Shown here in pieces: positions 4,801-63,259 of a DNA stretch of 64,000 nucleotides (its first letter is position 1; each line of letters begins with the position of its first letter). The stretch comes from an uncultured Candidatus Saccharibacteria bacterium (GTDB taxonomy: Bacteria > Patescibacteriota > Dojkabacteria > JAOAGR01): NCBI GenBank assembly GCA_964503755.1, contig CAZDBO010000003.1, forward strand, positions 32,686 to 96,685, read 5' to 3'. A program made the position numbers and the translations under genes. Under the pieces are notes generated by a model. The model had not been told where the DNA came from, searched no databases, and saw nothing but the letters and a program-made list of their open reading frames with translations.

Positions 4801-4875
4801 TGCGGGGTGGAGCAGTGGCAGCTCGTCAGGCTCATAACCTGAAGGTCGGTGGTTCGAATCCACCCCCCGCGACCA
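4801..4875 (+). tRNA. tRNA-Met (anticodon CAT), initiator-like
   Basis: Close to E. coli tRNA-fMet: (T)GCGGGGTGGAGCAG...GCTCGTCAGGCTCATAACCTGAAGGTCGGTGGTTCGAATCCACCCCCCGCGACCA; position 1:72 is not a Watson-Crick pair. Confidence 0.8.
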
Positions 4876-6124: not shown

Positions 6125-6299
6125 AAACCATTCTGATAACTAAGATATAAATCTCAAGCTTGTGCTAGCACCCAACTAAACCCTATTTCTCTTCTTCTAT
6201 CGTAATAATAAGCATTAGATGTTACTGACTCATACATGTATTTCCCAGGTCTTGTCTCATCATCGGTCACTCTACAAGTTTTCAATAGAATAGAACAAT

Positions 6300-6867
6300 T
6301 CATAGCGTTAGATTGTTGATCATAACCCCAAATATAAAATTTAAGAATGCAGCATCTACGGAATTTCTGATGAAATGTTCTTCCAATAGACTAAATTCTA
6401 ACTCTACGAATTGTTCCTCAGTAAAGTTTGGATCAAGTGAAAAGTTTTTTACCCAACCATAACTATTTACCTGTCCGTTTGTATAAGGAGCTAAACTCGT
6501 AAACATAGTCACTTGATTGTTCTTTTGAGCAAAATCTGGAACAACTCGTCTAAGAGACATATCTTCCGTACTTAAAATACTCTTTATATCTAACTGGTTT
6601 CAAATAACCCACATAATTTTGTACTCCTGGTTTAGCACGCATCTTCAGTTTAAATACAATATTACCTTGGTTTGTGTCTTTAAATTGATACCAAAAATGA
6701 ACTGAGGATGCCCCACCTAAAAGGAGCAGCTTATCATTTCGTATTACTGAATTATCATTAGATCTATAAAGATCAATAAGCAAATTATTTTTCACCAATC
6801 TAGAAGAATCCAGACATACAGGTTTTGTATAAGGACTTGTCCAATCTATTTTTATTCTATTTTCCAT
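6300..6867 (-). pseudogene. Frameshifted ORF pair of unknown function (possible degraded gene)
   Basis: Two - strand ORFs (6550-6867, 6300-6560) overlap by 11 nt in different frames; further ORF fragments lie down to about 6130; no recognisable family. Confidence 0.3.
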
Positions 6868-6939
6868 AATATTGTAACAATTATAGTTTTTATCGTTATA
6901 AGAATATACTCAACTACTGTAATAAAAGAAACATTCCAT

Positions 6940-8772
6940 ATTGAAACAAAACCTGTATTGCTTGGACCGATTACGTTTCTTTTGCTTTCTAAACAATACG
7001 AACGAAATGAGTGGCGCAAACATCTCGCCCCGTTAGTTCCTGTTTATGTAGAATTATTCAAACAACTAAGCGAAGCGGGCGTGTCATTCGTACAAATTGA
7101 TGAACCAATTCTCGTTCAACATATAGATGACGACATAGTCGATGCATTTCGTGATGTATATGAAGTTTTTCATCGCGATGTACCAAATATAAACCTTATT
7201 TTACAAACATATTTTGATAGCGTATCGCATTATCGTGAAATCGTTGCTTTACCTGTCGCAGGCATTGGGCTTGATTTCGTGCATGACGATGGCGAAAACG
7301 TCAAACATATAAACATACATGGATTTCCAAAAGACAAAATATTAGTTGCTGGGATTGTAGACGGTCGCAATGTATGGAAAAGCTCGCTTGCACAAAAAGC
7401 AACGCTCCTTCATCATTTAGCAGGCGTTGCGGAACAACTCATCATTCAACCGTCTTGCAGCTTACTGCACGTCCCTGTCACGACAAAACATGAACATGCC
7501 TTGCCAACGGAACTTGTCCATACGTTATCGTTCCCTGATGAGAAATTAGATGAGATACGTATGCTTACAGAATATATGAAAGGAAACGCAACAATCGACG
7601 ACCTAATCAAATACGATGAACAAACAAACGCTTATTTTACTAAGTTCCGTGAACAACAAAGACAAACAAACGACATCACCACCGTTCCGTTAAGCCGAAC
7701 ACCTTACAACGAAAGAAAAAAAGTACAACAAGCACATTTGCAGCTTCCACTGTTGCCGACAACGACGATTGGCAGCTTCCCGCAAACAAACGACGTGCGC
7801 CAAGCTCGGATGAGGTGGAAAAAAGGCGAATGGAACGATAACCAATACAAGTCGTTTATAAAGAAAGAAATTGCAAAATGGATCAAGATTCAAGAGCAGC
7901 TACAGCTTGATGTACTTGTTCACGGCGAATTTGAACGCACAGATATGGTTGAATTTTTCGGGGAAAAATTACAAGGAATGGCATGCACAACAAACGGTTG
8001 GGTACAATCATACGGATCACGTTGTGTTCGTCCACCCATTATTTTTAGCCATATTGCCTATCAACAACCGATGACCGTAGAAGAAACCGTGTATGCTCAG
8101 TCGCTGACGAATAAACCTGTTAAAGGAATGCTGACAGGTCCTGTAACCATTTTAAACTGGTCGTTCGTTCGCGACGATATTTCACCAAAACATGTGCTGA
8201 TGCAGCTCGCCCTCGCCATTCGTGGGGAAGTATTGCAGTTAGAAAAGGAAGGCATACGCATCATTCAAGTCGATGAGCCAGCGTTACGGGAAGGATTGCC
8301 GCTCAAAAAAGAGAAGCATGCATCATATTGGGAAGATGCCGTTATGGCGTTTCGTCTCGCTACCTCATCGGTGAAAGAGGAAACGCAAATTCATACACAT
8401 ATGTGCTATTCCCAGTTTGAACATATGATGCATATCATTGATGAGCTTGATGCGGATGTCATCTCCATTGAACCGTCGCGAAGCCACGGTGAACTTGTTT
8501 CATCATTTGAAACATATGAGTATCAAAAGGAAATTGGCTTAGGGGTGTATGACATTCATAGTCCGGGCATTCCGACAAAAGAAGAAATACGTGAGCAAAT
8601 CGAACGTGCACTTCGCGTTCTTCGTCCAGAACAATTTTGGGTCAATCCCGATTGTGGATTAAAAACGCGAAAAGAAAAAGAAGCTATCGATGGACTCAAA
8701 GCGATGGTGGAAGCCGCACACGAATATCGCCAGCAACTCTTGGCTTATGGAGGGATGAAAGCATGGAAGTGA
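6940..8772 (+). CDS. metE: 5-methyltetrahydropteroyltriglutamate--homocysteine methyltransferase, 5'-truncated (N-terminal about 150 aa missing), Bacillaceae-like
   Basis: ...IETKPVLLGPITFLLLSK... through the C-terminal catalytic domain (HTHMCYS, SIE, WVNPDCGLKTR); upstream in-frame sequence is unrelated to MetE and hits a stop at 6898; GC about 45-50%. Confidence 0.85.
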   Translation: METKPVLLGPITFLLLSKQYERNEWRKHLAPLVPVYVELFKQLSEAGVSFVQIDEPILVQHIDDDIVDAFRDVYEVFHRDVPNINLILQTYFDSVSHYREIVALPVAGIGLDFVHDDGENVKHINIHGFPKDKILVAGIVDGRNVWKSSLAQKATLLHHLAGVAEQLIIQPSCSLLHVPVTTKHEHALPTELVHTLSFPDEKLDEIRMLTEYMKGNATIDDLIKYDEQTNAYFTKFREQQRQTNDITTVPLSRTPYNERKKVQQAHLQLPLLPTTTIGSFPQTNDVRQARMRWKKGEWNDNQYKSFIKKEIAKWIKIQEQLQLDVLVHGEFERTDMVEFFGEKLQGMACTTNGWVQSYGSRCVRPPIIFSHIAYQQPMTVEETVYAQSLTNKPVKGMLTGPVTILNWSFVRDDISPKHVLMQLALAIRGEVLQLEKEGIRIIQVDEPALREGLPLKKEKHASYWEDAVMAFRLATSSVKEETQIHTHMCYSQFEHMMHIIDELDADVISIEPSRSHGELVSSFETYEYQKEIGLGVYDIHSPGIPTKEEIREQIERALRVLRPEQFWVNPDCGLKTRKEKEAIDGLKAMVEAAHEYRQQLLAYGGMKAWK

Positions 8773-9212
8773 GCGTCGAGCAGTCGAAAACGATTCAAAC
8801 ACGGCTCGTATTGCCTTCTGATACGAACCATCTCGGGACGATTTTTGGCGGTACGGTTTTAGCGTATATTGATGAAATTGCGGCAATATCCGCCATGCGC
8901 CATGCGCGAAAAGCAGTCGTCACCGTTTCGATCGACAAAGTTGATTTCATTTCATCCGCGAAAGTAGGCGATATTTTAAAACTCGAAGCATTCGTCTACT
9001 CAACCGGACGCACATCCATGAAAGTATTCGTCAAAGTCGAAACAGAAGATTTATTTACAGGCGAACATCACTTAACAACCACATGCTTTTTAACAATGGT
9101 CGCCATCGATCAAAACAAAAAACCGACCCCTGTTCCGAAAGTCATCATTCGTGAACAGGAGAAACAAATGGTACAACTGTATCAACAAAACAAACGAAAC
9201 AATAAGGCATAA
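8763..9212 (+). CDS. Acyl-CoA thioesterase (hotdog fold, YkhA/4HBT-like)
   Basis: MEVSVEQSKTIQTRLVLPSDTNHLGTIFGGTVLAYIDEIAAISAMRHA is the typical hotdog thioesterase core; ATG overlaps the metE stop. Confidence 0.75.
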   Translation: MEVSVEQSKTIQTRLVLPSDTNHLGTIFGGTVLAYIDEIAAISAMRHARKAVVTVSIDKVDFISSAKVGDILKLEAFVYSTGRTSMKVFVKVETEDLFTGEHHLTTTCFLTMVAIDQNKKPTPVPKVIIREQEKQMVQLYQQNKRNNKA

Positions 9213-9230
9213 AATATTTACATGAAAAAA

Positions 9231-9277
9231 CACACGTCCGATTACATACAGGTAATCTATGACGTGTGTGTTTTATT
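9231..9277. terminator. Bidirectional rho-independent terminator between the thioesterase and convergent glmS
   Basis: CACACGTCC-GATTAC..GTAATC-..GACGTGTG nested hairpin flanked by AAAAAA (5') and TTTTATT (3'). Confidence 0.7.
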
Positions 9278-9292
9278 ACTCCATTCTACGCT

Positions 9293-11095
9293 TTACTCCA
9301 CCGTTACCGACTTCGCTAAGTTGCGCGGTTTGTCGACGTCGCAGCCACGGTGTAATGCTGCATAGTAAGCAATTAATTGCAATGGCACGACAGACGCAAG
9401 CGGTGTGAGCATCGGATGAACGGCTGGGATGACGAAACGATCGTCTTCCATGTCTAATCCTTTCATCGAAATGATGCACGGATTTGCGCCGCGAGCGACA
9501 ACTTCTTTTACGTTCCCGCGAATGCTTAAGTTGACATGTTCTTGTGTCGCTAGGGCAATCACTGGTGTGCCGTTTTCAATTAAGGCGATTGTGCCGTGCT
9601 TCAATTCTCCACCCGCAAAGCCTTCTGCTTGAATATAAGAAATTTCTTTTAGCTTTAATGCGCCTTCTAATACAACATAATAGTCAACGGCGCGACCGAT
9701 GAAGAAGCAGTTGCGTGTTGTTGCTAAATACTCGCGCGCAATTTGCTCCATTTCATGTTTTGCGTCGCAAAGTGCTTCCATCGCATTTGCAACAATGCCA
9801 AGCTCTTTCGTCACATCAACATCTAGCGCCATTCCTTTCGCTTTAGCAGCTACCGCAGCTAACATGGCAAGCACCGCAATTTGTGCTGTATATGCTTTCG
9901 TTGATGCAACCGCGATTTCCGGTCCTGCATGAAGAAGAAGCGTATAGTCTACCTCGCGCGATAATGTCGAACCTGGTACGTTCGTAATCGTTAACGATTT
10001 ATAGCCAAGCTCTTTTGTGCGCACAAGCACCGCGCGGCTGTCCGCTGTTTCTCCACTTTGTGAAATATAAATAAATAACGGTTTTTCCGATAAAAGCGGC
10101 ATGTTGTAAGAAAACTCGCTGGCGATATGCACTTCCACAGGGATTTTCGCCCAGTTTTCAATCAATTGTTTACCGACTAAACCAGCGTGATAGCTCGTGC
10201 CGCAAGCAACGATATATAAACGATCCGCTTCATTCACTGCTTGCACGATTTCTTCGTCAATCGCCAATTCGCCTTGTTCGTTGCGATATTTTTCAATTAA
10301 ACGGCGAATGACGAGCGGTTGTTCGTCAATTTCTTTTAACATGTAGTAAGGATATGTTCCTTTTTCAATGTCGCTTGCATCCAATTCCGCTACATATGGT
10401 GCACGCTCTACTACTTCACCATTTAACTTTTTAATTGTCACACTTTCTTTTGTGACAATGACAATTTCTTTATCCATGAGCTCGACATATTGGTTTGTCA
10501 CTTGTAACATCGCTAATGCGTCGCTGGCGACTACATTAAATCCTTCGCCTAATCCAGCTAAAAGCGGGCTTTTGTTTTTCGCCGCATAAATGACACCATC
10601 ATTTTCTGCATCAATTAAAGCAATCGCATATGAACCTTTCAATAACGAAAGGGCCTTACGAAACGCTTCTTCTACCGATAATCCGTCGTTTACAAACGTT
10701 TCAATTAACTGCACAATGACTTCTGTATCCGTATCACTTTTAAACGACACGTGAGCTAAATAATCACGTTTTAACAACTCGTAGTTTTCAATTACCCCAT
10801 TGTGCACAAGCGTAAAGCGGCCTGATGCACTTTGGTGTGGATGGGCGTTGACGCGGTTCGGTACGCCATGTGTTGCCCAACGTGTATGACCGATGCCAAG
10901 CGGTGCGTCTACATCTTCTGCGACAATCGCACGCAAATGAGCAATTCGTCCTTTTTCTTTAAACACATGTACTCCTGTTTCGTTTAGTAAAGCAATTCCC
11001 GCAGAGTCATAGCCACGGTATTCTAACTTTTCTAATCCGTACAATAAAATTTCTTTTGATGGTTGTTCACCAATATAACCAACGATTCCGCACAT
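9293..11095 (-). CDS. glmS: Glutamine--fructose-6-phosphate aminotransferase (isomerising)
   Basis: 600 aa, N-terminal MCGIVGY class-II amidotransferase, two SIS domains, C-terminal ...[12 protein letters not shown]; Bacillaceae-like composition. Confidence 0.95.
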
Positions 11096-11104
11096 AACAA
11101 GTCC

Positions 11105-11320
11105 TCCCTAATCATAGGGGCAAGAAGGGGATCTTGGCCCTTAAATAATTGATGAAATGGCGATGAACGTTCTTTCCTTTCTGCAAAGAGTCGCCTCTTT
11201 GTTTTAAGAAAGAACTTGCGGCTGTCATCGCATCAGCCGGGAGGCATCCGCCGAACACTCGATAAACCTCCTCCTCGTCAACTAAGCTTTTTTCCGTCCA
11301 AAGCTTAGTCCAGGCGCTTT
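11105..11320 (-). ncRNA. glmS ribozyme (GlcN6P-responsive self-cleaving riboswitch) in the glmS 5' UTR
   Basis: - strand reads AGCGCCTGGACTAAGC...GTTGACGAGGAGGAGGTTTATCGAGTGTTCGGCGGATGCCTCCCGGCTGATGCGATGACAGCCGCAAG..., matching the conserved core of the Bacillus glmS ribozyme (AGCGCC...GUUGACGAGGAGGAGGUUUAUCGA...CGGCGGAUGCCUCCCGGCUG...ACAGCCG). Confidence 0.85.
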
Positions 11321-11488
11321 TATACAGTTATTTTCCGCTATCCTCCTTTCATGTAAGATGTCAAACAACAATAGTTTACAACAACAAAGAGGCAAACGTA
11401 AATGTGTATCGCTTACCCCTGTATAAACAAAATATGCATAAATGGAATAAATGGTTCCATTTATGCATATCGTTTACCGAGCATATCA

Positions 11489-12477
11489 TTATGCGCCAAA
11501 TCGTTCGCGAATAACAGACGCAATGCGCTCGACGTATTGATCGCAAAGTTCATTTGTTGGCGCTTCTGCCATCACGCGAACGAGCGGCTCCGTACCAGAC
11601 GTACGAACGAGAATGCGACCGTTTCCAGCCATCTCTTCTTCTACTTCGCGAATGACACGCTGCATCTCTTCATTCGCAATCGCCTCATGTTTGTCTGTTA
11701 CTTTCACATTCACTAATTTTTGTGGATATTTTTTCATTTCCCCCGCTAGCTCAGAAAGCGGCTTTTTCGTGATTTTCATAATTTTGACAAGCTGTAACGC
11801 CGTCAGTAGCCCGTCGCCTGTCGTATTGTAATCGAGGAAAATAATATGCCCCGATTGTTCTCCACCTAAATTGTAGCCGTTCTTTTTCATTTCTTCGACG
11901 ACGTAACGGTCGCCAACTGCTGTTTGTACGCTTTTGATTCCTTGCGCTTCAAGCGCTTTATAAAAACCAATGTTGCTCATCACCGTCGAAACGACCGTTT
12001 GATGTTTCAAGCGACCTTGTTCGTGTAAATATTTTGCGCAAATGCACATAATTTGATCGCCATCAACGATTTGACCGTTTTCATCAACTGCAATTAATCG
12101 GTCGCCATCGCCATCGAACGCTAAACCTACATCTGCTCCTTTTTCCTTCACAAACGCAGCCAACACCTCTGGATGTGTCGAACCGACACCTTCGTTAATG
12201 TTTAATCCGTTTGGAGATGCGCCCATCGTAGACACATCGGCATCTAAATCAGCAAATAAATGTGTCGCTAATGACGACGTCGCACCGTGCGCACAATCAA
12301 GTGCAACGTGAATGCCTGAAAAATCTTTGTCCACTGTTTGCTTTAAATATTGTAAATATTTTTGTCCGCCTTCAAAGTAATCGTTTACTTGCCCTAAATC
12401 TTTCCCAATCGGACGTGGTAACGTATCTTGTTCACTATCGAGAAGCGCTTCAATTTGAATTTTGTTCTTGTGGATAT
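11489..12477 (-). CDS. glmM: Phosphoglucosamine mutase, 5'-truncated (C-terminal about 320 aa present)
   Basis: ...[63 protein letters not shown]...[10 protein letters not shown]... aligns with the central and C-terminal GlmM; N-terminal region with the active-site Ser loop is absent; the frame closes at TAA 12475-12477 at the composition boundary. Confidence 0.85.
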
Positions 12478-12963
12478 TGACTTCTTAAAAAATCCATATA
12501 ATTTTTTATATAAGACACATTATATTTTCTCTTCTCCGTTTCCCAATCTCGATCAATTGCCGAAGTATTATTTCGTGATAGATTATTATTTCCAACAAAG
12601 CTAAAACAACCAAAACTACACCAGTGAATACTACGGCTGTAGCCAGCGTTATAACTACAACAAATCTTCGCTTCGATTTTTATTTGTTATTAAATCCCTA
12701 CCCAAATAAAATATTTGTAAATTTGAATTATTTATTCTTGGCGTTACCTTTGCCTTTATATTTTCCAAAAAAAAACACTAAACCATTTAAATAATTGATT
12801 TACAGGAAAACCTCTCCTATTATCTCTTTTATCTGATTTATGATGGGCTTGCTTGTAACCAGATACAATACATTACTTTATTAAAATACCGTTACATTGT
12901 CAACAGAATCAAATCAAAATTTGTTTTTTGTCAAGTCTCATAACTGTTTATAATTTATTTGTA

Positions 12964-12993
12964 TTGACAAATAACGCATCAGTGAGTTACAAT
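12964..12993 (+). promoter_or_regulatory. Sigma70-like promoter (TTGACA-18-TACAAT); TSS predicted at the ATG of the DUF11 giant protein (leaderless)
   Basis: -35 TTGACA 12964-12969, -10 TACAAT 12988-12993, ATG at 13000 (7 nt downstream). Confidence 0.45.
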
Positions 12994-12999
12994 TTATAC

Positions 13000-15900
13000 A
13001 TGGAAAGGCCTACCAAATTATTAACAACAACAAGAAAAAATAATTATCAAGTTCTGATTTCTCTGATTGGACTAATAATTTTTGGTTTATTCTTTATAGT
13101 TTACCTCGTATCGGTGATCAGCAACAATGACAATCAAGCCAATATAAACTCTAAAGCTTATGCTTTTTCTGCAGAATGGATATACGACGGTGGAAATGGT
13201 CGCGCAAATCGCAACTGTAGATATCAAACAGGTGGTGGTAAATGTGCATTATCAGAATTTAGAGGATGCAATCCCGGTCCAGACACAATTTGTGTTTGTA
13301 ATAAAGATATAATCGTAAACAACGAACAAAGCTTAACCTATGGTAATTTTTCACTCATGCCTGTATCACAATATATTGAATGTGGCATTGATACGAGCAT
13401 CTGTAATAATCCAAATGTACCAGGTGAAACACTTCCTGATGGAAGCCGTATGGTCATAGGAGTAGCTTCTGTTTGCCAAAATCCTTATGCTATTAAATGT
13501 CCACCAAGACAGACACCTAGTCCAAGACGCGCAAGTGTAAACTTAGAAGTTGTATGTGTTGATGGAAATGACCGTACAGGTAATTTTACTATCACAGCTT
13601 CCGCTGTCAGAAGTTCTGATGGGCGAGGACTGGCAGTCCAAACTTTCAATAACGTCAGACCAAATTCTAGCGTACAAAGATATACAATAAATTTTGACTA
13701 TTTTGCAGATACGGATTTACCTGTCCGCCTTAATTTGGATAATTCTCCAACATCAGATAACGGTGTATATGTATCTAGAAATACATGTGCTGGATTAGAC
13801 TTACGAGATGGTGAAACTTGTAGACTCGAATATAGCGGCTGTCGTATACCCACAACACCACCACCTTCATCAACATCTATAAACGTTGGTGCAAGATGTG
13901 TGACAGAAGATGGCAGAAATGAAATCTTCAAAATATCAGGAATAAGATATCAGGCTTCCGTGAATGCACAAACACAAAGTGGAACTACTGGCAACAATCT
14001 TAATACCCATACATTCAATGGAGTAGGAAATGTTACTGTAACATTAGCTTCAAATCTTGATGAAATAAAAAGATTGCCACAACTTCAAAGATTTACACAA
14101 CTAAGACAATTGAGTCCAAACAGCATTACGGTTTCCAATGGAGGGGAAGCTATATTTAATTTTACAAATTGCTATATACCAATAACAGCACAATGTACTT
14201 CATTACGAATCGAATATACCGACACAAACAATCAACAAAAAACAATAAACGTTACATCCACAAATTCAGTTAATGTGGCTGATGGTTTACCAAAACCCGG
14301 TACACAATTGAGACTAATTGCAACAGGTGGAGATGCAAACACATTATTTAGAACTTTCTGGATGAAACCAATTAATGCTGATTCATCACAAGGATGTAAT
14401 TTTTATCTGATCCACAACGGTACAGTGAATACAACAATTAACTCTTCTGGTAACACAACAACCGCGACATTTACTCTACCAAACAATTATTTGACAGAAT
14501 TATCACGTGGTGACGCAGGACAAGATAAACTTGGACAATGTAATAATAAATTAGATTTTAGACAGGGTATCATGTTTGGTGTAAATTATCATGCTGAATG
14601 GATTGAAGGTATGAGATTTTGTAGAAATGTGTCTGGTCGTACAGAAGGTGGAGATTTAATTGAGGTCTACTGCGTAAATAGAGATAACAATGGAAATTGT
14701 ACTAGAGTAGACTGGAGACCAATCAATCAACGATGTGACAACATATGTATTGCTAACGCTAGACCAGCACAAACAGAAACGCCAAGATGTACAGGTTTAG
14801 AAATAACAAATTTAAGAAATAACAATACATGCAATGGCTCAAATCCTGCTGCTTGTAATTTGAATAGAGGTGATAGACTAAGAGTAACCATAAGGTATTC
14901 GGGTAATCCAAGAGAATACATTTCTGAAGAAACAGCCATATTTTATGGTACACGTGGTCCATTATCTGCATCACGAACATTAAATAGTCCAACTTTTGAA
15001 GTAAATGTAAATAACGATAATGATTTAAGAACATTCAGAATACGAGGAGACGTAAATCCTGGATCAAACAGTCAAAACAATCAATGTACTGTAGAATTCA
15101 ACTTCGCTCAAATTACAAATCAATCGATAAATGTTGAGGCTGTATGTAGAGATAATAATCAAAATATCAGACTTGGCGGCATAAACTATAGAATCACCGC
15201 ACAAGACAATTCTACACAAACTGGTACTACAGATAGCAACTCCGCAAGAACTCATAATTTCCTATCGAATCAAATGCCAGTAAGAGTTGAAATAACCGAT
15301 GAGATCGAAAGAATAAGACAAATTACAAGTTATCCAAATTTAGAGTTTGTAGATCCACCTGGCAGAACTATTAATAACGTGAATAATGGTCAAACTGCAA
15401 CATTCGTATTTAGAAATTGTGTAAGACAGACACTGAATCCGCAAATCACTATAGAAAAAAGACTTATTGAAGGAAATTATCAAAATGTTGGAAATAATGT
15501 TGTATTTGACATTGTAGTCAGAAATACAGGAAATGTGGATATCCGATCATTCAATTTATCAGATGAATTTGATAATAGATATCTTAAATTTATTGATGCA
15601 ACATATCGAAATGTAAATCTGGCACCAACAACTAGAATTGGTCCAAACAACAATTTAATAACTCTGAGATGGGATGATATGCCTCCAAAATCAGGAAATA
15701 TAACTGGTGAAGATGGAATCCTTACTATTAATGAAACATTTGTTTTGAGAGTAAGATTTAGAACACTAAATTCGACAGAAAATCTACCACAAAATGCCAG
15801 AGAAAATGATAACTGTGGATTAATAAACACTATAAGATTTGTAAATGATAGAAACGAAACAGAAATAAGAACTGTTGATCTGAGAAGTTGTGATGAGTTC

Positions 15901-16476
15901 TTCACACGTACACCTAGACCGCTCACAGTACAAATAAGTAAAAATGCTATAACAACCGAAGTAAATATTACTCAAGAAGCAAGATTCAGAATTACGATAA
16001 CAAATAACGACCCTGAAAGAAGAACATACACAGATATAGACTTTGTCGATACTTATGATGTTAGATTCTTAAAACCAATAAGAGCTCGTATTACAGCACC
16101 AAATGGTAGAGCGGCAGAGATCACAAATGTTCCTCATGTAAGTCCGTGGAGAATAGAAAACATACAAGAACTACAAAGTATAACTGGTGCCGGTCCTTTA
16201 GGAAATTTGGAATACAATCAATCATATGTAATAGAGCTTGTATACCAAGCATTAGCAGGTACAAATAGTACATGCGACACGGTCTATGCAGATGTTAGAT
16301 CAAGTGACAATAACGGAGCACGCAGTAATAATGCAGAAGCCTGTGTCAAAATAGTAGTACCACCATCCAAAGACACAGGTGCTGATGGATTTATACAATT
16401 GGTCCTACCAGGATTATTATCAACTGCTGCATATGTTGTGATGAGATTTGTTAGAAGAGAGGAGTACCTAGCTTAA
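13000..16476 (+). CDS. Giant surface protein: N-terminal signal-anchor TM, Cys-rich region, DUF11 (conserved repeat domain) repeats, C-terminal TM anchor with basic tail
   Basis: N-terminal TM YQVLISLIGLIIFGLFFIVYLVSVI; many Cys in residues about 90-560; DUF11-like repeats (NVVFDIVVRNTGNVDIRSFNLSDEFDNRYLKFIDATY; ARFRITITNNDPERRTYTDIDFVDTYDVRFLKP); C-terminus ...FIQLVLPGLLSTAAYVVMRFVRREEYLA. Confidence 0.7.
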   Translation: MERPTKLLTTTRKNNYQVLISLIGLIIFGLFFIVYLVSVISNNDNQANINSKAYAFSAEWIYDGGNGRANRNCRYQTGGGKCALSEFRGCNPGPDTICVCNKDIIVNNEQSLTYGNFSLMPVSQYIECGIDTSICNNPNVPGETLPDGSRMVIGVASVCQNPYAIKCPPRQTPSPRRASVNLEVVCVDGNDRTGNFTITASAVRSSDGRGLAVQTFNNVRPNSSVQRYTINFDYFADTDLPVRLNLDNSPTSDNGVYVSRNTCAGLDLRDGETCRLEYSGCRIPTTPPPSSTSINVGARCVTEDGRNEIFKISGIRYQASVNAQTQSGTTGNNLNTHTFNGVGNVTVTLASNLDEIKRLPQLQRFTQLRQLSPNSITVSNGGEAIFNFTNCYIPITAQCTSLRIEYTDTNNQQKTINVTSTNSVNVADGLPKPGTQLRLIATGGDANTLFRTFWMKPINADSSQGCNFYLIHNGTVNTTINSSGNTTTATFTLPNNYLTELSRGDAGQDKLGQCNNKLDFRQGIMFGVNYHAEWIEGMRFCRNVSGRTEGGDLIEVYCVNRDNNGNCTRVDWRPINQRCDNICIANARPAQTETPRCTGLEITNLRNNNTCNGSNPAACNLNRGDRLRVTIRYSGNPREYISEETAIFYGTRGPLSASRTLNSPTFEVNVNNDNDLRTFRIRGDVNPGSNSQNNQCTVEFNFAQITNQSINVEAVCRDNNQNIRLGGINYRITAQDNSTQTGTTDSNSARTHNFLSNQMPVRVEITDEIERIRQITSYPNLEFVDPPGRTINNVNNGQTATFVFRNCVRQTLNPQITIEKRLIEGNYQNVGNNVVFDIVVRNTGNVDIRSFNLSDEFDNRYLKFIDATYRNVNLAPTTRIGPNNNLITLRWDDMPPKSGNITGEDGILTINETFVLRVRFRTLNSTENLPQNARENDNCGLINTIRFVNDRNETEIRTVDLRSCDEFFTRTPRPLTVQISKNAITTEVNITQEARFRITITNNDPERRTYTDIDFVDTYDVRFLKPIRARITAPNGRAAEITNVPHVSPWRIENIQELQSITGAGPLGNLEYNQSYVIELVYQALAGTNSTCDTVYADVRSSDNNGARSNNAEACVKIVVPPSKDTGADGFIQLVLPGLLSTAAYVVMRFVRREEYLA

Positions 16477-16483
16477 GCAAAAA

Positions 16484-16810
16484 TTGCAAATTCATATTAT
16501 CCAGGACATAATAGATGATATGTCCTGGATTTTATTTTTAATTATTACAATTTCCAGTATAGGTATAATAATAATATTAAATTTTGTACCTCCCTACTCT
16601 ACAAATAATGAAATAAACATAATACCTGTATTTTTTCTTAGTTTGTTTTTTGGTTCCTGTACCGCTTCAATATTTTACTTTTTATATAGTGTATTAACAA
16701 AAAAGAACAAAAATATAAGAATCTTTTGGAATAAACAACTCGGATATTTAAGCTTTTTTGTCGGGATAATTTTTGCGATCACCTTATTTATTAAAATTCT
16801 ATATTTCTAA
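16484..16810 (+). CDS. Small hypothetical membrane protein (3 TM)
   Basis: 108-aa hydrophobic ORF 7 nt after the giant gene. Confidence 0.4.
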   Translation: MQIHIIQDIIDDMSWILFLIITISSIGIIIILNFVPPYSTNNEINIIPVFFLSLFFGSCTASIFYFLYSVLTKKNKNIRIFWNKQLGYLSFFVGIIFAITLFIKILYF

Positions 16811-16867
16811 TAATTTGCAAATTTCACAAAAATTGATAACATAAGCTTGGTAGGCCTCTTTTACCAA

Positions 16868-16903
16868 GCCCTTTCTAGAAATAGAAAGGGTTTTTATTTT
16901 TTT
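16868..16903 (+). terminator. Rho-independent terminator (preceded by a second hairpin at 16845-16869)
   Basis: GCCCTTTCT-agaaata-GAAAGGG followed by TTTTTATTTTTTT; upstream hairpin GCTTGGTA..TACCAAGC. Confidence 0.75.
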
Positions 16904-16938
16904 ATCAACTTGCTAATATATCATTAAAAACTGCCCAA

Positions 16939-17415
16939 ATGACAATTAGAAATTCTATTGTTATAAATTTAGATAAAGTTCGTACTGGCATTAAGTCTAA
17001 GTTATCTAATGTAGTTTTTTATATCATTTATTTTGTAATAATCTTCAGTACAATACTCTTTGTTTCTAACGAAATACTGGCTAGTATAATCAATAAATCC
17101 AACATAGAAGAAAAAGTCAGAATTTATGAAGAACAAATTGAAAAATTAAAAAACGAAAATAAGCGTTTACAGATAGTCAAGGAGCAGATTTTTAGTCAAT
17201 TTTATCTTGAAGGCGAAGCACGTAATATGGGAATGATAAAAGATGGGGAAATTTTATATAAACTCAATCAAAACAGTAATATCAATGATTCTAATTCTAC
17301 AATTCAGACGACAGGTAATATAACCATGATTGAAAATGAACAAAGAAAGAATCTTAATAACGAAAAGAATAATAGTAGCTACATTATACAGTGGTTAGAA
17401 TTAATTTTTAATTAA
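16939..17415 (+). CDS. Membrane-anchored coiled-coil protein (FtsB/DivIC-like septum protein?)
   Basis: N-terminal TM followed by heptad coiled coil IEEKVRIYEEQIEKLKNENKRLQIVKEQ. Confidence 0.35.
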   Translation: MTIRNSIVINLDKVRTGIKSKLSNVVFYIIYFVIIFSTILFVSNEILASIINKSNIEEKVRIYEEQIEKLKNENKRLQIVKEQIFSQFYLEGEARNMGMIKDGEILYKLNQNSNINDSNSTIQTTGNITMIENEQRKNLNNEKNNSSYIIQWLELIFN

Positions 17416-18284
17416 TACGTTTTAGGTTTGACCAAAACAAAAAATGTGTAGTTTTCTTTGTTATCCTCTAAGTTTGTCTCTACTATATCAAGATTAAAAA
17501 TTCCAGCTAGCAAGCTCGAACCCATCACAGCAATATTATCTGGAAGTTCGCCACTAGCCAATAATTCTGCAACTTTTGAATGAGTTATCATCTCACCCTC
17601 ACCTGAGATTTGACGTAAATTTGGATACTTTTTAGCCATTGTATCTTTTGTCTGTAAAAATACTTGGGGGTGAGCCATTACTGTATCTATTTTTTCTAAT
17701 GTTACTCCTTTCTTTTTCATCAAAGCATGAGAAATACGAGTCTTATATGAACTAACATATTCAAAGTTATACTTACCAACATTTACAATAGTTTCCTCAA
17801 CAACTCCTCCTAGTACATTAAATAGTGCAAATTGACCATAGTCTATTTCATGTACGCTTAATGCATGTAATACATTTTCTGTTGCGTATAAATATACAAT
17901 CTCTATCTCTTTATCACCAAATATTTTCTCTTTATTTTCAAATAAAGCCTGTTCATTAAAGCTTCCTTGTCCTCCTTGTATGCCAACACGTATTTTATCA
18001 CCTGTACTTTTAACTAATGCCTTTTGATTTTGTATAGAATATGAATGAAAAATATCAAATATATCTTTCACAAATCTATCAGAAAGATCTGGACAGTTAT
18101 CAATGACATACTTTATTTTTTGCTCTATGAGTTCTGCCCATCTATCCTTATCGTAAAATTTTTTACCAGTTTTAATTTTATAAATCCCTATTTCTTTTAC
18201 TACTGTAAAACGTTCTTCCAACAGATTAAGTAATTGCTTATCAATTTCATCTATTTTTTTTCTTAAATCATTTATATTATTCAT
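17412..18284 (-). CDS. pheA: Bifunctional chorismate mutase / prephenate dehydratase (no ACT domain)
   Basis: N-terminal AroQ chorismate mutase helix pattern (LRKKIDEIDKQLLNLLEERFTVVKEIGIYK) followed by a PDT domain (IRVGIQGGQGSFNEQA ... TFFVLV). Confidence 0.7.
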   Translation of the reverse strand: MNNINDLRKKIDEIDKQLLNLLEERFTVVKEIGIYKIKTGKKFYDKDRWAELIEQKIKYVIDNCPDLSDRFVKDIFDIFHSYSIQNQKALVKSTGDKIRVGIQGGQGSFNEQALFENKEKIFGDKEIEIVYLYATENVLHALSVHEIDYGQFALFNVLGGVVEETIVNVGKYNFEYVSSYKTRISHALMKKKGVTLEKIDTVMAHPQVFLQTKDTMAKKYPNLRQISGEGEMITHSKVAELLASGELPDNIAVMGSSLLAGIFNLDIVETNLEDNKENYTFFVLVKPKTY

Positions 18285-20246: not shown

Positions 20247-22010
<1,764 letters not shown>

Positions 22011-27779: not shown

Positions 27780-28478
27780 TTATTTTGTACTAAACGCAAC
27801 CAAACGTCCTCTTACCACTAATCTATGAGTATCAAAACCAGGAGGATAACATGTTTGCAGTGTAGCAAATCTACCATCCTCATCGACATTAAAATAACTA
27901 CGATCGTCCGCTTCTATTATTCGAATAGAGTCGACGAAATAATCATATTGCCTGCCTTGATAAAAAACAGTAAACAGATCTCCTCTTTCCAACTTTGATA
28001 AAAGTGTAAACTGTGCATTGTATCTCCACATATCTTGTACATTTCTTGTGGAATGAGAGAAAAAGAATGCATTACCATAATCACCGGGTACCGCTGAACC
28101 ACGTGCCCAAGCTATTCCCTTTTTCATAGCTTCCTCTGATTCAGCATCGTTATTTATATCATTCACAACAAATACAATATCATTAACACCAATTTTGGGT
28201 ATAACAAGTCCAAAATCACGATTTTTAGGGTTATCGACATTATGTATAGGATATGCTTTTACTTCTGGTATATCTTCAACTCTTCTTTTTGCTAAAAGAT
28301 CTTCAAATTTGGGCGCATTACGCGATCTTTCATCGAAAATCTGCATAAAAGCATATCTAATTTCATGATAAAATATAGGACCATAAAAAAGTATTATCCA
28401 AAAAATGCCTAAAATCATTATAGTATTTAAAGTTATCAGGATAACCGTTTTTTTTCTTTTTTTATTGGCTTTTATCAC
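27780..28478 (-). CDS. Sortase family transpeptidase (N-terminal TM anchor)
   Basis: LERGDLFTVFYQGRQYDYFVDSIRII (beta6/beta7 region), catalytic ATLQTCYP (TLxTC) and downstream conserved Arg (HRLVVRGRL). Confidence 0.75.
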   Translation of the reverse strand: MIKANKKRKKTVILITLNTIMILGIFWIILFYGPIFYHEIRYAFMQIFDERSRNAPKFEDLLAKRRVEDIPEVKAYPIHNVDNPKNRDFGLVIPKIGVNDIVFVVNDINNDAESEEAMKKGIAWARGSAVPGDYGNAFFFSHSTRNVQDMWRYNAQFTLLSKLERGDLFTVFYQGRQYDYFVDSIRIIEADDRSYFNVDEDGRFATLQTCYPPGFDTHRLVVRGRLVAFSTK

Positions 28479-29670: not shown

Positions 29671-30525
29671 ATGGCATTATCAATAAAACCAGAGGTATTA
29701 TTTAGTATTGGCAATTTTGAAGTCACAAATTCGTTTATATCTTATATTTTTATAATTTTATTAACTTCATTTGTTTATATTCTTATTTCAAAAAAGATAT
29801 CTATTTATCCTAAATCTAAATTAGGTTTAGGATCAGAGATTATTATTGAATCATTAAAAAAGACATGCGAGGATGTCGTGGGCTCAAAAATAACTAAAGA
29901 AATATTTGCCTTCATTTTCTCATTCTTTGTATTGATATTATTTTCAAATCTATTTGGTCTCATGCCATTTACTGGCTCTATCGGTATCGCTCATCCCAAA
30001 GACGACTCAAAATCAGTATCTTTAGGATCCGTATATGTAATCGAACTAGAAAATACTAGTCATATTAGTGAAGAAAAAAATAAGTTTGAAATTATTCCAT
30101 TTTTTAGATCACCTTCTGCTGATTTAAATTTCACAGTATCAATGGGTATAGTTACATTTTTACTAATACAAATCACAGCATTAAAACATGCAAAAATCGA
30201 GTATTTGAAAAAATTTTTTGATTTAAGAGTACCGATATATAATGGAATCAAAATAGTACTTACTCCAATAATGTTTGTTATTAATATATTTTGGCGATTA
30301 TTAGAAACGATACTAGAACTTTCAAAACTTATTTCTTTTTCATTCCGTCTCTTTGGAAGTATATTTGCAGGAGAAGTACTGTTGTTTGTTATTACTTCCT
30401 TAACATTAGGTATAGGTACTTTGCTAATATTTCCAATAGAAATATTTGTATCTTTTATTCAGGCATTTGTTTTTATATTTCTGACAGTGGTATTCATTAA
30501 GGTAGGTATAGATACTCACCATTAA
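29671..30525 (+). CDS. atpB: F0F1 ATP synthase subunit a
   Basis: Conserved RLFGSIFAGE (essential Arg helix) and 5-6 TM helices. Confidence 0.85.
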   Translation: MALSIKPEVLFSIGNFEVTNSFISYIFIILLTSFVYILISKKISIYPKSKLGLGSEIIIESLKKTCEDVVGSKITKEIFAFIFSFFVLILFSNLFGLMPFTGSIGIAHPKDDSKSVSLGSVYVIELENTSHISEEKNKFEIIPFFRSPSADLNFTVSMGIVTFLLIQITALKHAKIEYLKKFFDLRVPIYNGIKIVLTPIMFVINIFWRLLETILELSKLISFSFRLFGSIFAGEVLLFVITSLTLGIGTLLIFPIEIFVSFIQAFVFIFLTVVFIKVGIDTHH

Positions 30526-30578
30526 TGATGCGTAAATAAATATTTGCACATAAACAATTAATTGATAAAATACGAGCG

Positions 30579-30803
30579 ATGGAAGAATTAAAATATATAG
30601 CAATAGCATTAGCGATCGGACTTGGTACACTTGGTCCAGGTATAGGCTTAGGTTTAACAGCATCAAAAGCTGTTGAGGCCTTGGGCAGAAACCCTGAAGT
30701 AGAAAATAAAATAAGAACCTTAATGATCTTGGGTATGGGTTTGATTGAAGTTTTGGCTATTTTTGCATTGGTCATAGCTTTCTTGATCGCCTTCGTACTA
30801 TAA
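30579..30803 (+). CDS. atpE: F0F1 ATP synthase subunit c
   Basis: 74-aa hairpin proteolipid, GxGxGxG N-terminal helix, conserved carboxylate in GLIEVLAIF. Confidence 0.9.
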   Translation: MEELKYIAIALAIGLGTLGPGIGLGLTASKAVEALGRNPEVENKIRTLMILGMGLIEVLAIFALVIAFLIAFVL

Positions 30804-30823
30804 AAATAAGAATTAAATAAAAC

Positions 30824-31312
30824 ATGGAAGCACTTGGATTAAATTTAGTACAAATAGTTAGTTATACTGTCATATTTTTACTGTTTTATATAATTTCAAA
30901 AAGATTTATTAATAACTTTTTTAAGGTTGTTGAAGAACGTCAATCAAGTATTAGAGAAGGATTAGAGAATGCACAAAAAGCTAAAGTATTAAAAGAAGAG
31001 ATAGTCTCAGAAGCACAGAAAGAAAGTCAAAAAATATTAGAACAAGCTTATCTAGAAGCCAAAAATATTATTAACAACGCAAAAGAAAAAGAGCAAAAAA
31101 TAATTGCTGAAGCTGAAAAAAAATATGAAGGCATCATCCTACATGCACGTGATGATATAGAAAAAATGAAAGAAAAAGCTAAACAAGAAGGTCTAAAAGA
31201 AGCCGAATCAATTATTAAGTATGCCATAAATCAAGCTTTTAGAGAGATACAATTAACTGAAGAACAACATAAAGAATTTATTAAAAAGTCATTAGATTTG
31301 ATTAAAAAATGA
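30824..31312 (+). CDS. atpF: F0F1 ATP synthase subunit b
   Basis: Single N-terminal TM plus long charged helix (EEAQKESQKILEQAYLEAKN...). Confidence 0.8.
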   Translation: MEALGLNLVQIVSYTVIFLLFYIISKRFINNFFKVVEERQSSIREGLENAQKAKVLKEEIVSEAQKESQKILEQAYLEAKNIINNAKEKEQKIIAEAEKKYEGIILHARDDIEKMKEKAKQEGLKEAESIIKYAINQAFREIQLTEEQHKEFIKKSLDLIKK

Positions 31313-31509
31313 AAGCATATATTTATTCTAAAATCGAATTAGATAGTGAAACAAAGTCATTAGTACAAAGTTTTATTAAAGATAAATATCAGATAAATGA
31401 ATTTCAATACGAAATCGACCAAGAAATAACAGCAGGTATAAAAATAAAAATTGGGGGAAAAGTAATTGACCTTACTTCTAATTTAATACTAGAAAATATA
31501 CTATCATAA
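31309..31509 (+). CDS. atpH: F0F1 ATP synthase subunit delta, truncated (C-terminal domain only, 66 aa)
   Basis: ...ITAGIKIKIGGKVIDLTSNLILENILS matches the delta C-terminal signature (LIGG..IR.GD.VIDGS....L..L); ATGA overlap with atpF; no N-terminal helical bundle. Confidence 0.55.
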   Translation: MKAYIYSKIELDSETKSLVQSFIKDKYQINEFQYEIDQEITAGIKIKIGGKVIDLTSNLILENILS

Positions 31510-31516
31510 ATAGTTT

Positions 31517-33049
31517 ATGTTACTTGAGAAAATAAAAAAGGAAAAAAATCAAGCCAGTCCAAACATTGTCTATTCTGAAGGAAAAATTATCAAATGTTAT
31601 GATGGAATCATAATTGCTGATGGACTAGATACTGTAGGATATTTTGAGATTGTCAAAATTTATCTAAATGAAAACGAATTTGTCAAAGGTATAGCAGTTG
31701 ATCTCAGACAAGATGAAGTGGGAATTATTCCCTTAGAAGATACTACAAATGTCAAAATAGGATTAAGAGTAGTTACCACAGGCCAAAAATATACTATCCC
31801 CTGTTCTCAAGCATTTCTTGGAAGAATTATTGATATATTAGGCAATCCTATTGATGGAAATGGAGATATTTTACATACAGATCCCAAATACCAACTTGTT
31901 GAAAGAAAAGCACACGGTGTTATAGAAAGAAAATCTGTTAATGTACCATTATTGACTGGCATTACAGCAATAGATGCTCTAGTACCAATCGGTAGAGGTC
32001 AACGTGAATTAATAATAGGTGATAGGCAAACAGGAAAAACATCTCTTGCAATAGATATAATTATTAATCAAGCTAAGATCAATAATAAAATAGAAAACGG
32101 CGAAGAAAATGGTAAAAAAGTTTATAGCATATATGTCGCTGTTGGACAAAAAAGATCTAAATTAGTACAAATTGTAAATACTTTGAGAAAATTTGATGCG
32201 TTGAAATATACAATTATTGTTGCTGCCACAGCATCAGAACCTGCACAAAAGCAGTTTTTAGCACCATTTGTAGGTACCGCAATAAGTGAATACTTCATGG
32301 AAAACGGAAATGATGCTCTTATTGTTTATGATGATCTGACAAAACATGCCAAAGCTTATCGACAGATATCTCTACTTTTACGCAGACCACCAGGTCGTGA
32401 AGCTTACCCTGGAGATATTTTTTATTTACATTCAAGACTTTTAGAACGTTCTGCAAGATTGTCAGATGAACTTGGTGGCGGATCTTTAACAGCATTACCG
32501 ATCATCGAGACACAGGCAGGTGATGTATCTGCTTATATTCCTACAAATGTGATTTCTATTACTGATGGACAGATATATCTTAAATCTGAATTGTTCAATT
32601 CGGGCCAGAAACCTGCTGTCGATGTAGGTCTATCTGTATCAAGAGTCGGTGGTTCTGCTCAATATAAAGCCATAAAACAAGTAGCAGGTTCTTTACGTAT
32701 TACTTTAGCTCAATTTAGAGAACTTATTAGTTTTGTTCAGTTTGGAGTTGAGGTAGACAAAATTACTCAAAGCCGTATTGATATGGGGTTAAAATATACA
32801 GAAGCATTAAAACAAGGATTGCATGAATTATTTTCTATGCCAGAACAAGTAGTAATTTTATGGGCAATGAAAAATGGCTATTCTAATGATATAGAAAAAA
32901 GTCAAACACAGTCTTGGGTTCGACGTCTTTTAGAATTTATCAATGACCATTATCAAGAACAAATAATCAACAAAATAAATACAGAAAAGTCAATCACTGA
33001 CGAAATAGAAAATAATTTACATCAAGCCTTAAAAAATTTTAAATTTTAA
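31517..33049 (+). CDS. atpA: F0F1 ATP synthase subunit alpha
   Basis: P-loop GDRQTGKTS, conserved alpha catalytic-site residues; contains an insertion of about 20 aa (KINNKIENGEENGKKVYS). Confidence 0.95.
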   Translation: MLLEKIKKEKNQASPNIVYSEGKIIKCYDGIIIADGLDTVGYFEIVKIYLNENEFVKGIAVDLRQDEVGIIPLEDTTNVKIGLRVVTTGQKYTIPCSQAFLGRIIDILGNPIDGNGDILHTDPKYQLVERKAHGVIERKSVNVPLLTGITAIDALVPIGRGQRELIIGDRQTGKTSLAIDIIINQAKINNKIENGEENGKKVYSIYVAVGQKRSKLVQIVNTLRKFDALKYTIIVAATASEPAQKQFLAPFVGTAISEYFMENGNDALIVYDDLTKHAKAYRQISLLLRRPPGREAYPGDIFYLHSRLLERSARLSDELGGGSLTALPIIETQAGDVSAYIPTNVISITDGQIYLKSELFNSGQKPAVDVGLSVSRVGGSAQYKAIKQVAGSLRITLAQFRELISFVQFGVEVDKITQSRIDMGLKYTEALKQGLHELFSMPEQVVILWAMKNGYSNDIEKSQTQSWVRRLLEFINDHYQEQIINKINTEKSITDEIENNLHQALKNFKF

Positions 33050-33051
33050 AA

Positions 33052-33930
33052 GTGTCAGCATTACTCAATATTCAAAATAAAATAAGGGCGACGAAAAATA
33101 CAGCACAGCTCACTAAGGCTTTGGAAATGATATCTGTAACCAAGCAAAAAAAAGCCCGTGAATATATGATTTTCAATTCTGCACTTAGAGATGGTATTAG
33201 GAAGATAATTAATCAATTATACTTTCAAGAGAAATTAAAGAATTTAGGCAATGAAATATTACCAAAATATTTTCGAAAAAAATTAGAATCAAACAGACAT
33301 TTAGTAATTTTGATAATGTCCCAAAGGGGACTTTGTGGGAGCATAAATACACAATTGATCCAAAAGTTAATAAATTACAAAAAACACATACTTAGTGAAA
33401 ACAAAAATATTGAATTCGATATAATCACGGTAAATAAATATGCTCAAAAAATTTCCAAATCGTTAGACTATAATATAATAGCCTACTTTGACAGTATAAA
33501 GGATCTTCCATCAATCGAGGATACACTACCCATATCTGATTTAATAAAAAAACTATACGATGAATACGAGACTATACATATAGCATATACCCAATTTGTT
33601 AAACCTGCACGGACAACACCAACGGTAAGACCTATATTACCAATCAGTGTATCTACAGGATGGAAAGAAAATGATCTATCCTCTACTCCATACGTAATTG
33701 AACCAAATCCTATCACCGTGTTAGAAGAAATAGTAAGATTATATATTGATTTGGAAATCCATTATGCTATTCTAACATCACAAGCTTCAGAGCACACTTC
33801 ACGTATGATTGCTATGAAAAAAGCTTCGGACAATACCAAAAACTTAGTAAAAAATTTAACACTTTTGTATAACAAGGAGCGACAAGCTAAAATTACTAAA
33901 CAAACTATTGAAATCACATCATCTATATGA
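33052..33930 (+). CDS. atpG: F0F1 ATP synthase subunit gamma
   Basis: N-terminal IRATKNTAQLTKALEMISVTK and C-terminal ...ITKQTIEI helices typical of gamma. Confidence 0.85.
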   Translation: MSALLNIQNKIRATKNTAQLTKALEMISVTKQKKAREYMIFNSALRDGIRKIINQLYFQEKLKNLGNEILPKYFRKKLESNRHLVILIMSQRGLCGSINTQLIQKLINYKKHILSENKNIEFDIITVNKYAQKISKSLDYNIIAYFDSIKDLPSIEDTLPISDLIKKLYDEYETIHIAYTQFVKPARTTPTVRPILPISVSTGWKENDLSSTPYVIEPNPITVLEEIVRLYIDLEIHYAILTSQASEHTSRMIAMKKASDNTKNLVKNLTLLYNKERQAKITKQTIEITSSI

Positions 33931-62614: not shown

Positions 62615-63259
62615 CTATTTTTCAAGAATATTTTTCTCAAAAGACTTTGATCTATTGTATAAGTACCAAGTTACCAAAATAAATACGAAAATTAATGTAG
62701 GTAAAAACATATCATTTATACCCGCATTTGGTGCTGTATTAGAAATATCCACACGAGCTTTAGTACAAATTTCTTCAGGTTCTATCAAACAAACCTCGTT
62801 TTCCGTATTTTGTCCCGGGTTATCTACTCTAACCTTGTAAGTAATGACTATACTTTGATTTGGATTTAGTTGTTGAATAGTATCCCCATCAAATTCCCAT
62901 CTAATAACGCTATCAGAATTAGTGACAGGCTCAAACGCTACCTCTTCACCTGAAGTTTTAATAAGTTTAGGTTCTCCACTATAAACAAATCCCTGAGGTA
63001 ATTTGTCCTCAACGATTTCCGGAGTTAAAGTTTCAGAAGTTGTAATATTTTTGATTGTTACAGAATAAATAACAGTACCTCCTCTAGCAACAGTTTGTGG
63101 TGAAACATTTTTCTCTATAGAAAATCTCGTTCCTGTAGCAAGGTCAGCATATGCGTAATAAGTACTAAACAAAAATAAAAATATCAAGATTAAAACAAAG
63201 AAAAATCGTTTTACAAAATCTATTTTATCAAATAAATCAATACCTAACATCACATTCAT
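62615..63259 (-). CDS. DUF11 (conserved repeat domain) surface protein with signal peptide and C-terminal TM anchor
   Basis: FSIEKNVSPQTVARGGTVIYSVTIKNITTSETLTPEIVEDKLPQGFVY is a classic DUF11 repeat; C-terminus ...FLPTLIFVFILVTWYLYNRSK. Confidence 0.7.
   Translation of the reverse strand: MNVMLGIDLFDKIDFVKRFFFVLILIFLFLFSTYYAYADLATGTRFSIEKNVSPQTVARGGTVIYSVTIKNITTSETLTPEIVEDKLPQGFVYSGEPKLIKTSGEEVAFEPVTNSDSVIRWEFDGDTIQQLNPNQSIVITYKVRVDNPGQNTENEVCLIEPEEICTKARVDISNTAPNAGINDMFLPTLIFVFILVTWYLYNRSKSFEKNILEK

Follow-up and report, generated by a model that had tools for sequence, protein, structure and literature searches.

A stretch of 64,000 nucleotides from contig CAZDBO010000003.1 of assembly GCA_964503755.1 (positions 32,686 to 96,685 of the forward strand; hereafter the window) raises a simple question: does the GC-rich block of 5,537 bp near its left end, which carries genes of another phylum, belong to the genome in which it lies, or was it joined to that genome only during assembly? 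We consider it likely that the block (6920–12456) results from a recent inter-phylum transfer from Anoxybacillus, a heat-loving relative of Bacillus, to Dojkabacteria, in which illegitimate recombination, and no mobile element, brought about the integration. Its composition sets it apart from its surroundings: the GC content is 43.2%, compared with 30.6% in the remaining window, while other segments of 5,537 bp average 30.3% (standard deviation 2.4%) and never exceed 35.9%. The tetranucleotide profile of the block correlates with that of the remaining window at 0.58, and other sampled segments (13000–58000) at 0.95 or more. Between 7 and 12 kb, the GC fraction of 1-kb segments passes from 0.28–0.32 to 0.41–0.45; segments of 200 bp give 0.37–0.52 within the block and 0.26–0.35 immediately outside. 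An earlier reading made from the letters alone (the sequence-only reading) had noticed this step, for which it proposed a tetranucleotide check, and had placed it at 6940 and 12470 with 45–58% GC inside. The step is real and the tetranucleotide profile bears it out; the borders lie 15–20 nt from those proposed, and the GC range had been set too high. Pfam and Rfam confirm the gene content recognized by that reading, namely a metE fragment, a hotdog thioesterase gene, glmS with its ribozyme and a glmM fragment (Table 1). By composition and homology, the block is foreign DNA derived from Bacillaceae.

GlmS and MetE of the block belong to clusters of named Anoxybacillus proteins sharing at least 90% identity. 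In blastn comparisons (comparison contigs are designated L001, L002 and so on), the block is 98.0% identical, with one gap, to Anoxybacillus L099 (GCA_000346275.1), 97.2% to L097 (GCA_001651525.1), and 98.4% and 98.1% to the Logan contigs L101 and L103, respectively. All four carry glmM-glmS-4HBT(−)-metE(−) in the arrangement of the block, and the alignment to the donor contigs spans window positions 12456–6920 collinearly. Because the donor locus is collinear and 97.2–98.4% identical, the block reads as an unrearranged piece of the Anoxybacillus core chromosome, which narrows the Bacillaceae-like origin proposed earlier to one genus. The distance between the block and the individual strains is 1.7–2.7% over common columns, close to the 0.5–2.1% among those strains, and none of the Anoxybacillus sequences compared has the haplotype of the block.

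The recipient is assigned to Candidatus Dojkabacteria, formerly candidate division WS6, on the strength of ValRS, the ATP synthase β subunit and a neighboring 383-residue protein. All are encoded on the 112,194-bp contig around the block, and each shares a cluster (identity of at least 90%) with proteins from Candidatus Dojkabacteria metagenome-assembled genomes (MAGs). Related Dojkabacteria share the local gene order: L008 (GCA_026415655.1) and L009–L016 (Logan and the European Nucleotide Archive, ENA), with about 81% nucleotide identity to the window, and L106, with about 84%. In L008–L013, the gene for the 383-residue protein (+) is followed by a large gene of about 1,242 codons (−), a gene for a protein of about 1,160 residues (+), DivIC and CM_2/PDT; L106 covers only the first two of these, the large gene being partial and split. 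At the position of the block, L008–L013 and L106, which represent two Dojkabacteria lineages, have host-like sequence of the large gene, and no Anoxybacillus sequence is found at this orthologous site in any of them.

Comparison with the L008 copy of the large gene (11197–14925, minus strand) by tblastn and blastp explains what lies on the two sides of the block. Residues 998–1232 of the L008 protein correspond to window positions 6906–6193, directly left of the block, and residues 23–128 to positions 12768–12456, directly right of it; both remnants are on the minus strand and in the expected order. Since the two ends of the ortholog flank the block in correct order and orientation, the block takes the place of about 2.6 kb (codons ~129–997) of one and the same host gene. 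What is left of this gene is decayed. The C-terminal remnant is split by two frameshifts into open reading frames (ORFs) at 6550–6867, 6300–6560 and 6154–6303, with residues 1103–1183 of the L008 protein matched at 72% identity in a shifted frame, and the two remnants together contain at least four frameshifts in 1.1 kb. The large gene is also split in L010 (1316–5046; 1,133 + 110 aa) and in L106 (1320–3747; 239 + 182 + 395.. aa). From these alignments, it appears to be frameshift-prone or repeatedly pseudogenized across Dojkabacteria lineages. No Pfam family is on record for its orthologs in L008–L013.

Both borders of the block fall inside donor genes, metE on the left and glmM on the right. 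At the left junction, the window reads CTGTAAT where the relatives read CTGCAAT (L008, L009 and L106 alignments), and the donor side, read from the L099, L097 and L004 alignments, overlaps the host side by about 3–4 nt, (T)AAT. At the right junction, residues 80–128 of the L008 protein correspond to window positions 12602–12456 (tblastn), and a microhomology CTTCA is possible. These lengths are approximate, as the ancestral host sequence is inferred from relatives at about 80% identity. No stretch of k-mer length is common to donor and host at either junction, the possible microhomology being limited to about 3–5 nt. Pfam detects no integrase or transposase in the block, whose genes are metE, 4HBT, glmS and glmM, or in the flanking ORFs; no phage, att or terminal-repeat features are present within the block, and neither a direct repeat of 8 nt or more nor a target-site duplication was found around the borders. 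The longest k-mer common to the two junction neighborhoods is 7 nt and lies away from the borders. Of the two junctions, the nearest tRNA gene, tRNA-Met at 4801–4875, lies some 2 kb away from that on the left. The block does not carry the mobile-element signature expected of a genomic island or integrative element.

The sequence-only reading had noted the same borders within genes and the same lack of integrase, transposase, tRNA target and direct repeats, all of which are confirmed here, and from the truncated genes it had argued for an assembly chimera or contaminant DNA. In such a case, co-occurring Anoxybacillus DNA would have been misjoined by graph mis-traversal, gap filling or chimeric molecules, and the true host gene would be uninterrupted. 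Two donor genes cut with no mobile element in sight speak for such an artefact, and the essentially unameliorated state of the block, with 43.2% GC and 98% identity to isolates, fits it as well. However, two separate misjoins would be required about 2.6 kb apart in a single host gene, in correct order and orientation, at sites where no sequence of k-mer length is common to both genomes; moreover, the frameshifts in the host remnants would be unexpected if the true gene were intact.

Separate assemblies of the sequencing runs bear directly on this point. Logan contigs are built with a different assembler from single runs assembled separately, and they exclude artefacts of the assembler or scaffolder of the deposited sequence. 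Contig L001 (SRR11582145) is 100% identical to window positions 7405–11604, while L003 (SRR11582145; 6250–7245) and L002 (SRR11582148; 5724–6990), also 100% identical to the window, run straight through the left junction. In L003, five block-specific variants and the host flank with its frameshifts lie on a single contig. The left junction, which a chimera would leave missing from separate assemblies, is thus present in those of two runs, and the haplotype joined to the host flank differs from the compared Anoxybacillus and looks less constrained. In these runs, Logan contigs of the host measure 1.0–2.2 kb and that of the block 4.2 kb; this similar fragmentation disfavors an abundant free-living strain identical to the block. 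L002 stops exactly 30 nt past the block-specific G6960, and the last base of L003 directly precedes the polymorphic site 7246. If the Logan k-mer length is 31, as we take it to be, 30 nt equals k minus 1, and a second Anoxybacillus-like allele is probably present in the same two runs, branching the assembly graph. The donor genus would therefore co-occur with the recipient, a point that counts in favor of a chimera. Altogether, the argument from mid-gene truncation to chimera is contradicted by the host-gene ends lying in order, by their frameshifts, by the lack of a junction repeat, by the left junction in the Logan contigs and by the distinct haplotype of the block, which leans towards relaxed constraint. 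The near-identity to a Bacillaceae genome that the sequence-only reading had asked about was found (97.2–98.4%), but its interpretation as contamination or chimera is not supported. As for the continuity in independent assemblies on which that reading had let the matter rest, it holds across the left junction in two runs and is unsupported at the right junction outside the NCBI contig. We regard a chimera as quite unlikely.

The substitutions carried by the block give a further view of its history. Codons where the window differs while L097, L099 and L103 agree were polarized with more distant Anoxybacillus and compared by Fisher tests with the three pooled reference lineages. Nonsynonymous to synonymous changes number 17:18 in the block lineage versus 13:35 in the references (p = 0.064), transitions to transversions 19:16 versus 41:9 (p = 0.008), and GC-to-AT to AT-to-GC changes 19:7 versus 23:22 (p = 0.084). 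By gene, the nonsynonymous to synonymous counts are 7:3 for the glmM fragment, 7:8 for the metE fragment, with several changes to Pro or Gly, and 2:6 for the intact glmS. In non-coding sequence, 8 of the 14 variable sites (485 columns) carry derived states specific to the block, and two of these eight sites fall within the ribozyme. These small numbers lean towards relaxed constraint and AT pressure following the transfer.

Several points weigh against a transfer. The right junction is supported by the NCBI contig alone, as judged from exact-protein look-ups and metagenome scans at the Joint Genome Institute (JGI): among the GlmM fragment, the small ORFs at 12262–12794 and five alternative starts of the neighboring large gene, only the 281-residue GlmM fragment and the 1,170-residue form (12964–16476) are on record, both exclusively at NCBI, and JGI scans gave no matches, either with the host 383-residue protein or with a 41-mer that crosses the right junction. 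The Logan contig L105 (SRR11582145) covers only window positions 15957–18191. In all likelihood, the Logan contigs and the deposited assembly derive from the same read sets; beyond the two runs, these contigs are not independent samples. The junction evidence consists of assembled contigs. The selection statistics are borderline (p = 0.06–0.08) and rest on 35–50 changes. Over about 5 kb of coding sequence, the block has no frameshift, in contrast to the host remnants, which requires the host gene to have decayed long before the insertion. Finally, model transformable bacteria very rarely integrate DNA that has no homologous anchor.

With these reservations, the transfer from Anoxybacillus may have proceeded as follows. 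A piece of donor chromosome some 5.5 kb long, with random ends, would have entered the chromosome of a Candidatus Dojkabacteria cell, a member of the Patescibacteria or Candidate Phyla Radiation (CPR). Illegitimate end joining would have inserted it, using very short microhomologies at either end. Recipient DNA would have been lost in the process, at a locus where disruption costs nothing, the host gene being either already decaying or inactivated by the insertion itself. Truncation within a gene at both ends is what uptake of a random fragment followed by illegitimate recombination would yield. On arrival, metE and glmM would have been truncated already and may now be dead cargo beginning to decay, while the thioesterase gene and the glmS-plus-ribozyme unit would have come in intact. 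Natural competence appears the most plausible route of entry; we infer the route, because the sequence keeps no trace of it. A survey of Patescibacteria (PMC12455944) reports that they are naturally competent, by means of ComEC and pili, and that genes are transferred to them.

Instead of naked-DNA uptake, a genuine transfer could also have relied on generalized transduction, conjugative DNA or a gene-transfer-agent-like particle as its vehicle, or on a mobile element since lost, for example a Tn7-like element targeting glmS. In length, a random 5.5-kb piece of chromosome matches small packaged DNA; in addition, host relatives encode a VirB4/TraG-like ATPase near the locus (L008 3021–5240), and some Anoxybacillus (L098, L100) have Tn7-like TnsA/TnsB downstream of glmS. 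Nevertheless, the block shows none of the phage, integrase, transposase, att or terminal-repeat features listed above, it has the Tn7-free arrangement, collinear with the ordinary donor chromosome, and its borders lie inside metE and glmM, not at the attachment site that Tn7 uses downstream of glmS. We hold such a vehicle to be very unlikely. Origin of the block at attTn7, considered since the block contains glmS, is ruled out by the Tn7-free donor arrangement and by the location of the borders.

Table 1. Coordinates of the block, its junctions, its genes and the flanking remnants of the host gene, in window positions.
Feature	Position	Strand	Description
Anoxybacillus-derived block	6920..12456		Collinear with the donor locus metE-4HBT-glmS(−)-ribozyme-glmM(−); blastn and GC
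Left junction	6918..6923		Host homology to ~6922; donor homology from 6920 (TAATAAAAG)
Right junction	12451..12458		Donor homology ends at 12455/12456 (..GCGCTTCAATT); host resumes at ~12456–12458 (GAATTTTGTTC..)
C-terminal remnant of host large surface-protein gene	6154..6922	−	Pseudogene; 1,242-residue ortholog in L008
N-terminal remnant of the same host gene	12456..12768	−	Residues 23–128; high-scoring segment pairs in three frames
metE fragment	6920..8772	+	Lacks first 141 of 758 codons; ~81% kept; longest ORF from TTG 6958
4HBT (hotdog) thioesterase	8763..9212	+	Intact, 149 aa; Pfam PF03061
glmS	9293..11095	−	Intact, 600 aa; N-terminal Cys kept; Pfam GATase_6/7 and two SIS domains
glmS ribozyme	11159..11329	−	Rfam RF00234; 139.9 bits (gathering score 37); model positions 1–167 of 167
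Terminator-like hairpin	11431..11471	−	3′ of donor glmM, kept in block; 17-pair stem followed by T-rich tail
glmM fragment	11489..12456	−	Lacks first 125 of 447 codons; in-frame translation, donor coordinates

The genes of the block keep the organization of the donor (Table 1). In the metE fragment, whose translation is up to 97.5% identical to Anoxybacillus MetE P0043, the Pfam domain Meth_synt_1 is matched only from profile position 154 and Meth_synt_2 is complete; the sequence-only reading was right about the truncation at the left border but had estimated the retained part at two-thirds, which is too low. The 4HBT gene starts 10 nt before the end of metE, with the same overlap in the donor, and the exact thioesterase protein is present on the Logan contig L001 too. 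GlmS is 99.67% identical to Anoxybacillus WP_009362625.1. At the other end, the glmM fragment matches PGM_PMM domain II from profile position 20, followed by domains III and IV; domain I, which we take to be the usual location of the catalytic Ser, is missing, in agreement with the loss of the N-terminal region noticed earlier. A promoter scan of the block returned sites no more numerous than in shuffled sequence.

The ribozyme is placed in the 5′ leader of glmS (start at 11095), on the same strand. Two lineage-specific changes, absent from all Anoxybacillus references compared, are seen in it at 11181 and 11293. The first, C to G in the RNA sense, lies in the internal loop of the last helix, where it breaks the ACA of the Rfam consensus; the second is a 1-nt deletion in the first hairpin, in the P1 loop region. 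According to our own reading of the Rfam alignment, on which the P1 and P4 labels are based, both changes would fall outside the core helices.

The mutation spectrum of the block is unusual. Among its 46 derived substitutions, 35 are at G:C pairs, the ratio of transitions to transversions is 22:24 and no A↔T change is seen; 12 of the 46 are C:G to G:C, compared with 3 of 50 C↔G changes among the Anoxybacillus references and 3.7% in the divergence between the host and its relative. DNA damage before uptake, or poor repair in the host, is one idea for this pattern. L008–L013 differ among themselves at 0–7 sites, too few for a host mutation spectrum, and the comparison of the window with L008 is saturated and cannot be polarized.

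On the donor side, the segments of L098 (7291–13979) and L100 (3455–10143) downstream of glmS hold a type III restriction-modification pair together with the TnsA/TnsB genes, in the place of 4HBT-metE in the donor type of the block; in L102 (7291–7878), only the start of the methyltransferase is seen before the contig ends. In its layout, the L098/L100 arrangement resembles a Tn7 insertion at the usual attachment site downstream of glmS. The other members of the GlmM cluster (L005, L006 and L007) are ordinary Anoxybacillus contigs from unrelated samples. One of them, Logan contig SRR28230092_17270 (L006 1–22), opens with ..AGATGTGTATAAGAGACAG, which we take to be Nextera adapter sequence; untrimmed adapter appears to be present in some Logan contigs.

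On the host side, the 1,170-residue protein encoded at 12964–16476 (+), divergent from the disrupted gene, is a DUF7507 protein. Other large secreted or surface proteins of the window are an S8 subtilase with Ig-like and dockerin domains and a DUF11 protein (49751–52333 +; 62615–63259 −), and a sortase gene is located at 27780–28478. The ATP synthase genes are split between 20593–21972 (−) and 29671–33930 (+): subunits a, b, α and γ are grouped and followed by VKOR and Hsp20, while the β subunit lies about 10 kb off on the opposite strand.

If the transfer is genuine, the window holds the raw product of DNA capture before trimming by selection, with non-functional gene fragments still present, a donor known to genus and breakpoints readable to within a few bases. 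It also suggests a Dojkabacteria–Anoxybacillus host–symbiont pairing that can be tested. The window encodes the peptidoglycan enzymes Mur ligase, MurJ, Ddl and Alr, and the host therefore has a use for amino-sugar precursors. One could imagine a Dojkabacteria cell that lives on or beside Anoxybacillus, imports its DNA by competence and occasionally fixes pieces of it, and in which expression of the intact glmS-plus-ribozyme unit could supply the peptidoglycan pathway. We find this scenario unlikely; if true, the insertion would reveal which bacterium hosts an uncultured CPR lineage and there would be a working Bacillota riboswitch-ribozyme in a CPR cell. A literature search for a link between Dojkabacteria and Anoxybacillus, or for the run accessions and the accession of the relative, found nothing. 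For MAG curation, the locus is a caution: a GC step with truncated foreign genes is insufficient to call a chimera, and the site should be compared in relatives.

How does the locus compare with known systems? Like chimeric MAG contigs, it changes composition abruptly and has truncated foreign genes at its two borders; unlike them, it is flanked by parts of one host gene, its left junction is found in two runs and no repeat marks the junctions. The ribozyme-glmS unit is like those of Bacillota (RF00234) in its full-length match, its location in the 5′ leader and the glmM terminator-like hairpin upstream, and differs from them in being in a CPR genome and in its two lineage-specific changes. 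With illegitimate, microhomology-based integration, the block has in common the random fragment ends, the few nucleotides of possible microhomology, the loss of recipient DNA and the lack of a site-specific recombinase. Homology-facilitated illegitimate recombination during natural transformation has been described in Acinetobacter and Streptococcus. In contrast to that process, no homologous anchor is visible on either side of the block, which therefore points to double illegitimate recombination or to capture during end joining. Horizontal gene transfers into Patescibacteria/CPR likewise involve genes from other phyla with atypical composition that are absent from relatives (PMC12455944). 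In that survey, the divergence of transferred pairs ranges from 3.9 to 34.5%, with a mean of 23.7%, and recent transfers from other phyla are described as rare, difficult to catch in metagenomes and not captured, whereas the block is only 1.6–2.8% from donor isolates and carries truncated genes that selection has not trimmed. Horizontal gene transfer into CPR bacteria and illegitimate integration are both already known, and the block is an unusually fresh instance of them, not a new kind of event.

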